Assembly: GCA_000004695.1 (NCBI GenBank)
Contig: CM000152.2
Coordinates: 224,001-288,000 of the forward strand
Source: Dictyostelium discoideum
Taxonomy: Eukaryota
Reading direction: 5' to 3'
DNA length: 64,000 nt
Shown: piece by piece, positions 32,195-58,714 of the stretch
How the letters are laid out: the number at the start of each line of letters is the position of its first letter
How positions within the stretch are numbered: position 1 is the stretch's first letter
Notes under the pieces: model-generated
The model's database searches: none
What the model was told of the DNA's origin: nothing
The model's input: the letters and a program-made list of their open reading frames with translations, nothing else
Made by a program: the position numbers and the translations under genes

Positions 32195-33992
32195 TTAAAA
32201 TAAAGGATTAATTTCTTTAAGAATAAACATTATATCAGTGTAGTGATCACTTGCTGGAAGATCAGTATAATTTTCAAGTTTTTTCAATGCCGAGTTCAAA
32301 ACTGATATGATATGGCCCTCTAGTTGGAATCTGAAATTCTTGGTGGTACATATGTATTTAACATTAAAATTACTATTGATAGTTAATCTATCTAAATAAA
32401 TTGAATTATATGTAACATATGTTACTTTTTTATCTCTTTCAATTGAAATTGTCTTTTGTTTAAAATCTTTCCAAACATCATTACCACGAAAGCTTGAATT
32501 ATTTACAAAATATTCATTTTCAATTTTAGCAATTTCAGTACCAACTTCATCAATCGATGGTCTAACATTGACATCAAGTGAACACATTCTATTAATTAGT
32601 GATTCAAATGATAATGGAGTACTTTCAGGATAAATTAGTTTAAATCCATCTGAACGAATCATTCTAATTTGGAACTGTATTTACCAGTCATAGCAAGTAC
32701 TATTAACTTTAATAGAAGTGATAAAAAAAAATAATAACAATAAATTAATAAATATATATTAATTAAAAGGATTGATTGATTAAATGAGTAATGAAGAACG
32801 TACCTCCCATAAGACGATTCCAAGAGAAAAGATATCACAATGATGATCAAAAGTATAACCATCCCCACCTAATAATGGATCCATGTAACCAGCTGTACCA
32901 ATTGGTTTCAAAAGAGTTCTTTTTGTATTCTTTTGATAATCAGCTATACCTCTTCCGGTACCAAAATCACTAATAACGATTCTACCATCATTTTGAACTA
33001 AAAAGTTGGCAGTTTTAATATCCCTGTGAACCATTTGTTCATCACGAAGACATCTCATTGATGCCAATATATCATCAATGATTTTAAAAATGGAATGCCC
33101 TTTGCAAACATTTTATTGATTTCAGATGGTTTTGATTGTAAATTGAATTGAGCCATTGGCATTATCAAAAAAGCGGATTCATTCATTGAACACCAAAAGT
33201 TTTAACAACCGTAGTTCCTTCATATTTACTAACTTGACCAACAGCTGCAATTTCTTTTGCGAAATTGATGAAGCAATTATTACTACCAAAAGCCATGGCC
33301 TTAAATGCTGCCAATCTACCATTCAAGCAGCCTCCATACACCATTGCATTACCGCCAGAGCCAATAGTAGAATCCATATCAACATAACCTCTTAAAGGAT
33401 CAATATTAGTTATACGTGATAAATGATTACAAAATGATTGAGTACCCAAGTTTTTATCATTTAGTGAAGTAATTTGACATTTTTTTAAAAGTGTATCCCA
33501 AGTTAATTTAATTTCATCTTTTATAAATATTTTTTTCCATTTTTTTAGTTCTTTTGATCTTCCAGTATAATCAAAATATTGATTTATATAGTTTTCCAAA
33601 TTTTCAAAAATAGAACCGGAAGTAAACTCTAATAAAATAAATGACGGAATAAATGATGATAATTTGAAAATTTTATATGTTTTTTTGATTTCCATTACTC
33701 TATATACTATTTCTCTAGAAACTAACTTTTTAGATCTTTTTTTACCAAATTCACCACCACCCAATAAAACCAATTTAATTATATTGAGATTTGCACGTTC
33801 AATTGAATAATCTAAAACAGTACGTAGTTTATTATCTTGAATTGAATAATCATAATTTTTTATATAATTGATAATTGATAAGCAAAGGCAAACCATCGAT
33901 TCATTGGGATTTTTCATTAATGAGTGAAATGGTGTTTGACCTTTTGCATTCTTCTTTTTGATTTGAATCTCTAAAATATTTTGGACCAGCAT
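32195..33992 (-). pseudogene. Ankyrin-repeat protein kinase gene (3 exons). The N-lobe is disrupted by two single-nucleotide frameshifts, so this is either a pseudogene or the sequence has indel errors.
   Basis: The 5' ORF (33992..33183) has an ankyrin-like GQTPFHSLMKNPNESMVCLCL, then GSGGNAMVYGG (G-loop), AFKAM (VAIK) and helix C FAKEIAAVGQVSKYEGTTVVKTFGVQ, and then hits a stop. The next 115 nt encode, in a -1 frame, NESAFLIMPMAQFNLQSKPSEINKMFAKGIPF (beta5/hinge/helix D). A second -1 shift is needed to enter the frame encoding IIDDILASMRCLRDEQMVHRDIKTANFLVQNDGRIVISDFGTGRG...GTAGYMDPL...DIFSLGIVLWE. A clean intron (donor GGGAG|GTACGT at 32803, 129 nt, acceptor atacag, exon 32674..32195) then adds FQIRMIRSDGFKLIYPESTPLSFESLINRMCSLDVNVRPSIDEV. 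The only phase-consistent splice across the gap (GTAAAT donor, caaag acceptor) would delete subdomains IV-V and pass through the kinase-like coding text, so I favour the frameshift reading. Confidence 0.5.
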
Positions 33993-34120
33993 GTTTTAAT
34001 AAAAAATGAAGAAAACTATTTTTTTTGAATTTCATTTTCTAGTCAAATTTCTTTGTAAACATCATATAGATTTTTGTACTTTTTACATTTATTATCAGCT
34101 ATTATTACTCCAGTTAAATT

Positions 34121-55896: not shown

Positions 55897-56165
55897 TCTT
55901 ATCAATTAATTTCAAACATTCTCCGTTGAACTAAAAATAGATATTTATTTAAAAAAAAAAAAAAAAAAAAAAAAAAAAATTTAATAAGTCTTACAACTTT
56001 TAAAAAAAATGAAATGGTTTTTTTTTTTTTTTTTTTGATTTTGTTTTATCTATAATTTTATACATTTAAATGTATAAAAAAAAGTTTTTGTCTATAATTA
56101 ATAAATTTAAAACAAGTTTTTTTTTTTTTTTTCTATAATTTTGATTGGTTTTTTTTTATTTTAAT

Positions 56166-58714
56166 TTATGATAAATTTGGTGGGGGTTGTGGTGGTTGTA
56201 ATGGTTGTGTTTGTTCAGTTTTATGGATTGTATTCATTGTAAATGATAGTTTTAATACATTTCCAGTAATTTTGTGATTGTTTAAATCCATTAACGCTTC
56301 AGTGGCCAATCTAGAATCGGGAAATTCTAAAAGTCCCATCAATTTTGTACTTTCACTATGGTAAATAAATTCAATTAGTATTTATTTATTATTATTATTA
56401 TTATTATTATTATTATTATTATTATTATTATTATTATTATTATTATTATTATTATTATTATTATTATTATTATTATTATTATTATTATTATTATTATTAT
56501 TAACTATTTATTATTTTAATTACTTACGGTTTAGTTGGAAAGAATTTACAATGAGTTGGAGTATGTGTACCAAAATTTGTAAATTCATCGATTAATTGTT
56601 TTTCAGTAAAATTAAGGGGAACATTTAAAAAGTGAAGAGTTGGTGAAGGTTTATAAGCATTCTTTCCATATGGTTGATTATTTAAAAATCTATTTAATGT
56701 TGATTTTGAATAATCTATTTATAATTTTATTTCATTTTTTTTTTTTTAATAGTTAGTAAAAGGAATTGTTTAATAAAATATATATATATATTTATAAATT
56801 AATTACCTCTAGTTTTTTCAGATTCTACAATATATTGATATTTTGTATGGAAAACACCTATTTTTTGACCATAAACTGAAGATTGATTTAAACATTGAAT
56901 TGCGATTTCAGCTTGAACACTATCACCCATTTGAACCATTGCACTACCTTTGGTATTATGTAGCATTTTAATTTTAATTACATTTCCATAGAGACAAAAG
57001 AGATTGAATAGTTTATCAGTATCCAAAGTCTCTGGTAATCTATTGACCAAGATTACAGGTTGACTGAGTGATTCTTGACCACCAACAATATTATACATAT
57101 AGGATGACATTGCCGATTGTGAGTACATCATTGATTTATCAATACCCATTGGAGCACCACCACCTCCACCACCACCAACCACACTAGTGAATGGAGAATG
57201 ATGATGACCCATACTACCATGATGGTGTGGAACGGTGGAAAATGGATTACCCATTGGACCACCTTGTGTTGGCATTGCATAAGGTGACCCTAAAGATGCC
57301 ATCTGTTGTTGCTGTTGCATTTGATAAAATTCTGCTGTATAATCTGCCGTCTTATCATCATTTTGTTTTACATTTAATTTTGAAACACGAGCAAACTCTA
57401 TTTGTAATTTACAACCACCATTATAAATATCTTGCCCATTTAATGATTCTTTTGCTGCCCATGCTGAATATGGTGAATCAAATCTGTGTGTGTGTGTGTG
57501 TGTGTGTTGTTTATAAATATAAAAATATATTGTAAGTAACTACTTTTTATTAAAAAAGAAACACACAAAAAAACAATAAAATAAAACTTACTCTACAAAA
57601 GTTTGTAAACCACTCTTTTTCTGAAAGATAACAATTCTTATAACTCTTCCATATGGTGACATAATATTGTGTATAGTATTGGTAGTAATTGGGTATATTG
57701 GATTTAAAATTGTACATAAAATTATATTTTGACTACCTGTTTGTGCTATTGGTTGATTCTTCTTTGAATTATTTAAATGCTGACTTTTAGAATATGCAAA
57801 TAAAATCTAAATAAAAATTAAAGTTAGTAATTTTTTAATAATAAAAAATTATTATTATTATTTTTAATTGGTTTTTTTTTTTTTTTTTTTTTTTTTTTTT
57901 TTTGGATATTTAGTGATAACAAAAGTATATGTTTTTAATGTGGTACCTTTTGATTATGTAATATGAATGGTTTAGTTATAGAAAGAGAAATGATGCTTGT
58001 AGATGTTTGAATTGAGTCCATTTCAATTAATGCTTGTCCCATTCTCATTAAACATACTAAAAACAGTGATGTAAATTATTGATGATGGTGTTTTTGGTAT
58101 ATTGGATTGTTGTTTGTTGGTTGGTTGGTTTTTTTGTTGATTTTGATTGGTTTGTTTATTTGTTTGTTTGGGGAGGGTGGCGAGCATTATTTGAGTATGA
58201 TGATGGATTATTTAGTTTGGAGAGAGTTTCAAAAGAAATGTGTATGGTATAAAAGATTTGAGTTTATTTTTTATGATATTATGGTATTATTAAAAAAGGG
58301 GAGGTAATATATAAAATGATGTGGTTAATAATGGCGAGTGAAAAAAAAGAAAAAAAAAAAAATAAAAAATAAAAACAAAGTGAAGTTTTTGTTTTGTTTG
58401 TGATTTTGAGGGTGTCTTACCTGCTTCAACTTTTCCAAAAGGTGATAATAATGCATGTATATCTGCATCTGTTACTGAATATGGAAGTCCTCGACAATGA
58501 ATAACTGGACTTGGTTCACTATTTTTTAAAAAAAAATTTTTTTAAAAATTAGTAAACATTTAAATAAAAATAGATTAAAATAAAAGAAATTTCTTACATT
58601 GATTTATCAATTTCGTTTTCAATTTCAAGTTTTAATCTCTTTGAATCATTATTTTCGCCATATGACCCTAATTGATCTGTTGAATTATCGAATTCTCTTT
58701 TCTTTATATCCATT
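56166..58714 (-). CDS. Polypyrimidine-tract-binding / hnRNP-L-like four-RRM protein. It is a seven-exon gene whose first three exons show single-nucleotide frame disruptions in this sequence.
   Basis: Exons on the minus strand, with donors: E1 58714..58598, E2 58518..58422 (GTAAGA), E3 58058..57947, E4 57806..57592 (GTAAGT), E5 57483..56807 (GTAATT), E6 56714..56528 (GTAAGT), E7 56355..56166 (TAA stop). E4-E7 splice in perfect phase. They encode ILFAYSKSQHLNNSK...SPYGRVIRIVIFQKKSGLQTFVE|FDSPYSAWAAKESLNGQDIYNGGCKLQIEFARVSKLNVKQNDDK...VILVNRLPETLDTDKLFNLFCLYGNVIKIKMLHNTKGSAMVQMGDSVQAEIAIQCLN...|DYSKSTLNRFLNNQPYGKNAYKPSPTLHFLNVPLNFTEKQLIDEFTNFGTHTPTHCKFFPTKP|ESTKLMGLLEFPDSRLATEALMDLNNHKITGNVLKLSFT... 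These align motif-for-motif with PTB RRM2-RRM4. E2 encodes RRM1 (EPSPVIHCRGLPYSVTDADIHALLSP). E1 has an extra A at ttcaAacag (ATG frame terminates after 21 codons), E2 lacks a T so FGKVEA falls out of frame, and E3 lacks a nt at gaaatgTGgac. Intron 6 carries an (ATT)n tract of about 40 units and intron 4 carries (CA)n. Confidence 0.65.
56385..56510. repeat. (ATT)n microsatellite, about 40 units, within intron 6 of the PTB-like gene
   Basis: The run attattattatt... is read directly. It lies between exon 6 (ending at 56528) and exon 7 (starting at 56355). Confidence 0.9.

Follow-up and report, generated by a model that had tools for sequence, protein, structure and literature searches.

Within a 64,000-nt stretch of Dictyostelium discoideum DNA (GCA_000004695.1, contig CM000152.2, positions 224,001 to 288,000; hereafter the window, numbered from its first nucleotide), conserved exons spread over 26 kb appear to carry a cluster of frame disruptions, and the question raised by this locus is whether these disruptions are real and how many genes they affect. 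The original prediction had counted at least six of them in three genes, namely two in a protein kinase, one in a Ser/Pro/His-rich open reading frame (ORF) and three in a gene resembling PTB. Three of the six turned out to be real, and these lie together in a single 3-kb gene instead of in three. The reading that we favour, with a probability of about 0.93, is that all real frame disruptions belong to a single unitary pseudogene, the protein kinase DDB0204413_ps, and that those of the PTB-like gene are intron-phase miscalculations made on an intact gene.

DDB0204413_ps, an Other/Dicty6 protein kinase, extends from 32135 to 35175 on the minus strand, as delimited by tblastn, synteny and Table S2 of PMC1420674. 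An intact orthologue of 922 aa (P0001) is found in Dictyostelium cf. discoideum; its residues 16-917 were matched by tblastn to window positions 34938-32156, with the frame shifting along the match, and the part for which the window needs five frames is read through in its gene model as one exon of 2127 nt. When the repaired kinase was used as query in a homology search, P0001 was recovered with 79% identity over 100% of the query (E 3e-287). Since P0001 contains the Ser/Pro-rich sequence and the stretch separating the two window ORFs as well as the kinase, both window ORFs belong to one gene, with the Ser/Pro/His-rich ORF representing the N-terminal third of a single ancestral gene of ~920-965 aa. 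Pfam Pkinase matches P0001 with an E value of 3.7e-28, and for DDB0204413ps the motifs AAFK, HRDIKTAN and DFG are listed and the Dicty6 family is assigned in the supplementary files of PMC1420674.

Another intact orthologue (965 aa) occupies the same position in the assembly GCA_054859385.1 (prefix ACTFIR), and the gene order mecr, DDB_G0278093 orthologue, kinase, dymA was found at both this locus and that of D. cf. discoideum. This assembly is labelled D. discoideum yet is only ~92% identical to the window over syntenic DNA, a divergence similar to that of D. cf. discoideum, and it probably belongs to a cryptic sister species. The sole genuine intron of the ancestral kinase region is a GT..AG intron of 97 nt (32707-32803, minus strand); an intron in this place, after 'LWE', is also present in the orthologues. 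Upstream, a remnant of the ancestral exon 1 was placed at 35140-35175 (minus strand) by alignment with exon 1 of ACTFIR and ACTFIY; the placement is tentative, the alignment being AT-rich, and it suggests that the ancestral ATG and the GT donor of intron 1 have probably been lost in the window copy. With full-length homology, multiple disabling mutations and a position and intron arrangement shared with the intact orthologue, the locus is, as judged from sequence, a unitary (non-processed) pseudogene with no functional copy left there.

In order to polarise the lesions, we compared the window copy with the two intact orthologues in pairwise and four-way DNA alignments. At least seven frameshifts (-4, +1, -41, -1, -7, -31 and +1) and two in-frame stops were identified within 3 kb, all read on the minus strand. 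The first frameshift is a 4-nt deletion in the Ser/Pro-rich region, GTTC[ATTC]GCC, at 34598-34601, recognised by a frame switch between two blocks matching the orthologue and by the four-way alignment with ACTFIR; it is the real counterpart of the lesion originally predicted in the Ser/Pro/His-rich ORF, located at ~34599 rather than at 34640. It is followed by a nonsense TAA at 34121-34123, where both orthologues have TTA (Leu), by the insertion of one A at 34052-34054 turning TAC-AAG into TACAAAG, by a nonsense TAG at 34039-34041 and by a 41-nt deletion at 33963-33964. Within the kinase domain, the two frame lesions of the original prediction were recovered by three-frame translation: the loss of one nucleotide at 33189-33191 (TTT to TT, position 33190), directly before kinase subdomain V, where the reading passes from VVKTFGV to SMNESAFLIMPMAQ, and a 7-nt deletion of TTGGAAA at 33094-33095, removing 'IWK', where it passes from KMFAKGI to SIFKIIDDIL. 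The sixth frameshift, a 31-nt deletion in the kinase C-lobe at 32674-32675, eliminated 'SRPITTLFKGD' and can be masked by a downstream AG. The seventh, one additional nucleotide at 32201, creates a premature TAA at 32197-32195 (feature 32195-32201), and the conserved C-terminal 'YKVYFGITKLF' carries on past it in another frame.

Two further candidates were discarded. A 23-nt "insertion" at 34609 in the first pairwise alignment was replaced by the 4-nt deletion after addition of the closer ACTFIR orthologue, and an apparent -11 at 34851 in the four-way alignment was an artefact of overlapping gaps, the homology staying in one frame on either side.

The three lesions predicted in the PTB-like gene are absent. 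Three-frame reading and comparison with orthologues resolved this region, on the minus strand, into an intact PTB/hnRNP-L-like gene at 56166-58713 with seven exons (58713-58598, 58518-58421, 58056-57947, 57806-57592, 57483-56807, 56714-56528 and 56355-56166) and six GT-AG introns. Every change of frame falls on one of these introns (79-364 nt), and the joined exons form one ORF of 1593 nt, coding for 530 aa, with consistent phases; the short motifs that had been quoted as lesion sites lie inside exons that read straight through. The original prediction had named errors in its own exon phases, for instance at non-canonical introns, as what would overturn it; for the PTB-like gene the phases were indeed wrong, but the introns are canonical.

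Independent comparisons gave the same result. The deduced protein is 99% identical to an independently annotated D. discoideum protein of 529 aa (P0121) and is colinear at all six junctions with the orthologues of D. purpureum and Polysphondylium violaceum; its alignment with these D. discoideum, D. purpureum and Polysphondylium proteins is free of gaps at each junction located in an RRM domain, and structures of human hnRNP L and PTB align without gaps over junctions 4/5, 5/6 and 6/7. In three other assemblies no frame-changing indel was found in these exons, the only length difference being one of 3 nt, in frame. Pfam recognised RRM_1 at four stretches, plus RRM_5 and RRM_8. The gene thus shares the four RRMs of the PTB/hnRNP L family (human PTBP1, PTBP2, HNRNPL), aligning to RRM2 and RRM3-4 of hnRNP L and to RRM2-4 of PTB with E values of 1e-22 to 1e-27, and differs from the human proteins in being amoebozoan and in its Gly/His/Gln-rich linker.

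Dictyostelium introns typically have less than 15% GC and a length of 60-250 nt. Intron 2 of the PTB-like gene (58057-58420, minus strand), with 364 nt, 27% GC and C/A-rich repeats, is thus unusual in both length and GC content. Neither an Rfam family nor a tRNA was detected when 31-60 kb was scanned, so that no RNA gene accounts for it, and the orthologues indicate that no exon is missing there. Owing to nonsynonymous differences at 58691 (exon 1) and 57984 (exon 3), the window encodes Phe8 and Leu97; three other assemblies labelled D. discoideum encode Tyr8 and Arg97, the latter being found in D. purpureum as well. Either substitutions specific to the strain or base errors in the source of the window may account for these differences.

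Could the kinase nevertheless be functional, its frame changes being bypassed by small or non-canonical introns, by programmed frameshifting or by editing? Some features speak for this: an 'intron' from GT 33192 to AG 33104 would give an in-frame VVKTF-G-HSIFK, the AG downstream at 32674 would give an in-frame LWE|FQIRM junction, which was used in the published conceptual protein, and residual transcription has been reported for 9 of 15 kinase pseudogenes (PMC1420674). However, the segment 33192-33104 encodes the conserved kinase subdomain V, and it is exonic in a second D. discoideum haplotype, recovered from Logan contigs (see below), as well as in the orthologues; its removal, together with that of 21 residues at the 32674 junction, would take away essential parts of the fold. 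Moreover, two stops, a +1 and a -41 lie upstream without flanking splice signals, and 'bogus introns' of just this sort have been described as prediction artefacts that mask disabling mutations (PMC1420674). We therefore regard a functional kinase produced from the window allele as very improbable, and retain DDB0204413_ps as a pseudogene.

The next point concerns the origin of the lesions. An indel error in an AT-rich genome would be expected at short runs, and the -1 at 33190 and the +1 at 34054 do lie within a TTT and an A run, respectively. The window was compared with a separate assembly, GCA_054883475.1 (prefix ACTFIT), to which it is 99.5-99.8% identical; scattered single-nucleotide polymorphisms and many differences in homopolymer length were observed elsewhere, which means that indel errors do happen in such assemblies, but not a single difference was found across 31760-38197, the lesions recurring base for base. 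Look-ups of the exact proteins encoded by the ORFs of 817, 269 and 155 aa returned a single other assembly.

Logan contigs, reached through the cluster membership of the 269-aa fragment (six SRA runs listed, seven contigs read), supplied the second haplotype. The contigs are identical to one another and 99.1% identical to the window. Four of the window lesions are present in this haplotype (TAA 34123, +1 34054, -41 33964 and -31 32674), and three are absent, namely TAG 34041, where it has AAG, -1 33190 and -7 33094. It carries in addition a private 195-nt deletion corresponding to window 32348-32154, which eliminates the region of the +1 at 32201; the site of the 4-nt deletion at ~34599 and the exon 1 remnant at ~35175-35140 are not covered by the contigs.

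Because the lesions are identical in an independent assembly and four of them are seen again in Logan contigs assembled from independent runs, they are natural and not errors of sequencing; purely systematic sequencing error had already been doubted in the original prediction. Their nature argues in the same direction, since they comprise deletions of 4, 7, 31 and 41 nt and two stops of substitution type, and manual inspection in the 2006 kinome study had led to the classification of the locus as a pseudogene (PMC1420674). We give practically no credence to the alternative that the genes are really intact. The nested sharing of lesions between the two haplotypes is what is predicted for the neutral decay of a gene that was already dead in their common ancestor.

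Constraint on the sequence was assessed by the ratio of nonsynonymous to synonymous substitution rates (dN/dS) against the intact orthologue. For the pseudogene the ratio was 0.59 over the whole length, 1.05 for the N-terminal part alone and 0.17 for the kinase domain, pairwise values that mix an intact and a dead lineage; for comparison, gnd gave 0.05 and PNPO 0.19. This pattern would be compatible with a relaxed constraint and a fairly recent loss of the catalytic part.

Several observations weigh against a gene that is wholly and long dead, or soften parts of the description given above. The kinase-domain dN/dS is only 0.17, reflecting either a recent catalytic inactivation or mostly the constraint on the intact lineage. 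The second haplotype retains an uninterrupted ORF of 381 aa across the catalytic core, and a truncated functional kinase product is possible in some strains. The exact size of the lesion at ~34599 is tentative, owing to the uncertain alignment of low-complexity Ser/Pro sequence, and so is the loss of the start codon, owing to that of exon 1.

The lesions, the synteny, the intact orthologues and the haplotype comparison are consistent with the following course of events. The ancestral gene, a member of a Dictyostelium-specific family, consisted of three exons, the 5′ one short, the next ~2.1-2.3 kb long and the 3′ one of 0.6 kb, and encoded a protein of ~920-965 aa in which a Ser/Pro-rich N-terminus was followed by a middle region and, at the C-terminus, the kinase domain. 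In the D. discoideum lineage of the window this gene would have lost its function and be decaying neutrally, presumably with no residual function. TAA 34123, +1 34054, -41 33964 and -31 32674 would predate the split of the two haplotypes; TAG 34041, -1 33190 and -7 33094 would have arisen later on the window allele, and the 195-nt deletion on the other. The -4 at ~34599 and the +1 at 32201 have no place in this order, as their sites are outside the contigs of the other haplotype.

The pseudogene has been known since 2006. Goldberg et al. (2006, PLoS Genet 2:e38; PMC1420674) described 15 eukaryotic protein kinase (ePK) pseudogenes in AX4, recognised by frameshifts or stops that had been hidden in gene predictions behind bogus introns or truncated ORFs, and their Table S2 lists this sequence as DDB0204413ps (also DDB0233273p), Other/Dicty6, "pseudogene". 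The published conceptual translation (MLVQNILEIQIKKKNAKGQTPFH...GTTVVXNFWCSMNESAFLIMPMAQFNLQSKPSEINKMFAKxHSIFKII...LWEFQ...) matches the window and carries frameshift marks at both kinase sites, the 'X' corresponding to the -1 and the 'x' to the -7. That model begins at ATG 33992; here the Ser/Pro/His-rich ORF and the intervening stretch are added to it, with five further lesions. What is modestly new is, therefore, the upstream extension through the Ser/Pro-rich ORF, the demonstration by intact syntenic orthologues of a unitary loss and not merely of a dead duplicate, and the polymorphism of lesions between two haplotypes, three of them being specific to the window allele.

The window copy resembles the other 14 ePK pseudogenes of D. 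discoideum (PMC1420674, Figure 6), whose otherwise conserved regions are broken by frameshifts and/or nonsense codons, whose lesions are hidden by automated models and which belong mostly to Dictyostelium-specific families. Its closest intact relative is the syntenic orthologue in the sister lineages, with 79% amino acid identity, whereas the nearest paralogue found under the D. discoideum label has 34%. This paralogue (P0005, ACTFIR_003600, 923 aa) and the functional Dicty6 kinases DDB0229339 and DDB0231196 share with it a low-complexity N-terminus, a middle region, for which Pfam Ank_2 is recorded in the paralogue, and a C-terminal kinase domain with HRD(I/F)KTAN and DFG motifs; they are intact, whereas the window copy, ~34% identical, is disabled.

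The original prediction had also remarked that one lesion per exon is unusual for a natural pseudogene. That count was an artefact: once the PTB lesions are set aside and the Ser/Pro/His-rich ORF is read as the N-terminal part of the kinase, the lesions left make up a textbook multi-lesion pseudogene, that published as DDB0204413_ps. Annotation of the locus is fragmented. In GCA_054883475.1 three 'hypothetical proteins' (296, 269 and 155 aa) are annotated in place of the pseudogene (window 32195-35258); the first of these models, that of 296 aa, has as its start an ATG that is not the ancestral one (window 35258) and gets past the frameshift at 34599 only through a bogus intron. The fragments of 269 and 155 aa have UniParc identifiers and names in this new assembly only, with no current AX4 (EAL/XP) protein accession.

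A second kinase-related locus lies in the same interval, at 46790-49190 on the minus strand, and comprises a C2 domain and a kinase C-lobe remnant published as the pseudogene DDB0204419_ps, with 'multiple insults' and no parental gene (PMC1420674). In four new assemblies, D. cf. discoideum included, it is annotated as a C2+Pkinase gene of 333 aa. Its exon blocks are 96-98% identical to those of D. cf. discoideum and gap-free, against 66-85% for the AT-rich spacers, and pN/pS is ~0.08 in kinase fragments 2 and 3, the two largest, and 0.20 for the whole locus pooled. From these values the locus looks like a constrained gene, perhaps coding for a pseudokinase, rather than a decaying pseudogene. 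At its C-terminus (window 46790-46850) the window reads ...KLTWDQCLKH... and Table S2 of 2006 ...KLTWEQCLKH..., a mismatch of one residue with the AX4-derived sequence.

That a locally raised indel rate or relaxed selection should have hit several genes over the 26 kb is hardly credible: a second published kinase pseudogene does lie in the interval (46790-47650), and two of the 15 known ePK pseudogenes ~12 kb apart would occur by chance at roughly 1% per pseudogene in a 34-Mb genome (a rough estimate), but DDB0204419 is constrained, the two belong to different kinase families, and the PTB-like gene, gnd, amt, PNPO, mecr, dymA and DDB_G0278093 are all intact. The intactness of the neighbours, already noted in the original prediction, was borne out by gene calls, and the proteins encoded in the window by gnd (6-phosphogluconate dehydrogenase) and DDB_G0278093 are identical to those of AX4. 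The GC content is 14-28% per 2-kb segment of the window, mostly 20-27%.

The single unitary pseudogene that we favour carries some practical lessons. Three spurious lesions arose in an intact gene of seven exons because its exon phases had been tracked by eye, and, as a caution for annotators, recent assemblies still call separate proteins at a locus shown to be a pseudogene in 2006. As for the biology, both catalytic frameshifts and one of the stops are private to the AX4-type allele and the other haplotype has an open frame of 381 aa, and because of this we raise the possibility, doubtful on present sequence evidence, that the kinase is dying now rather than long dead, and that some natural strains might express a truncated, possibly active Dicty6 kinase. 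If this were true, the locus could provide a natural allele series for the stepwise death of a gene in a social amoeba.

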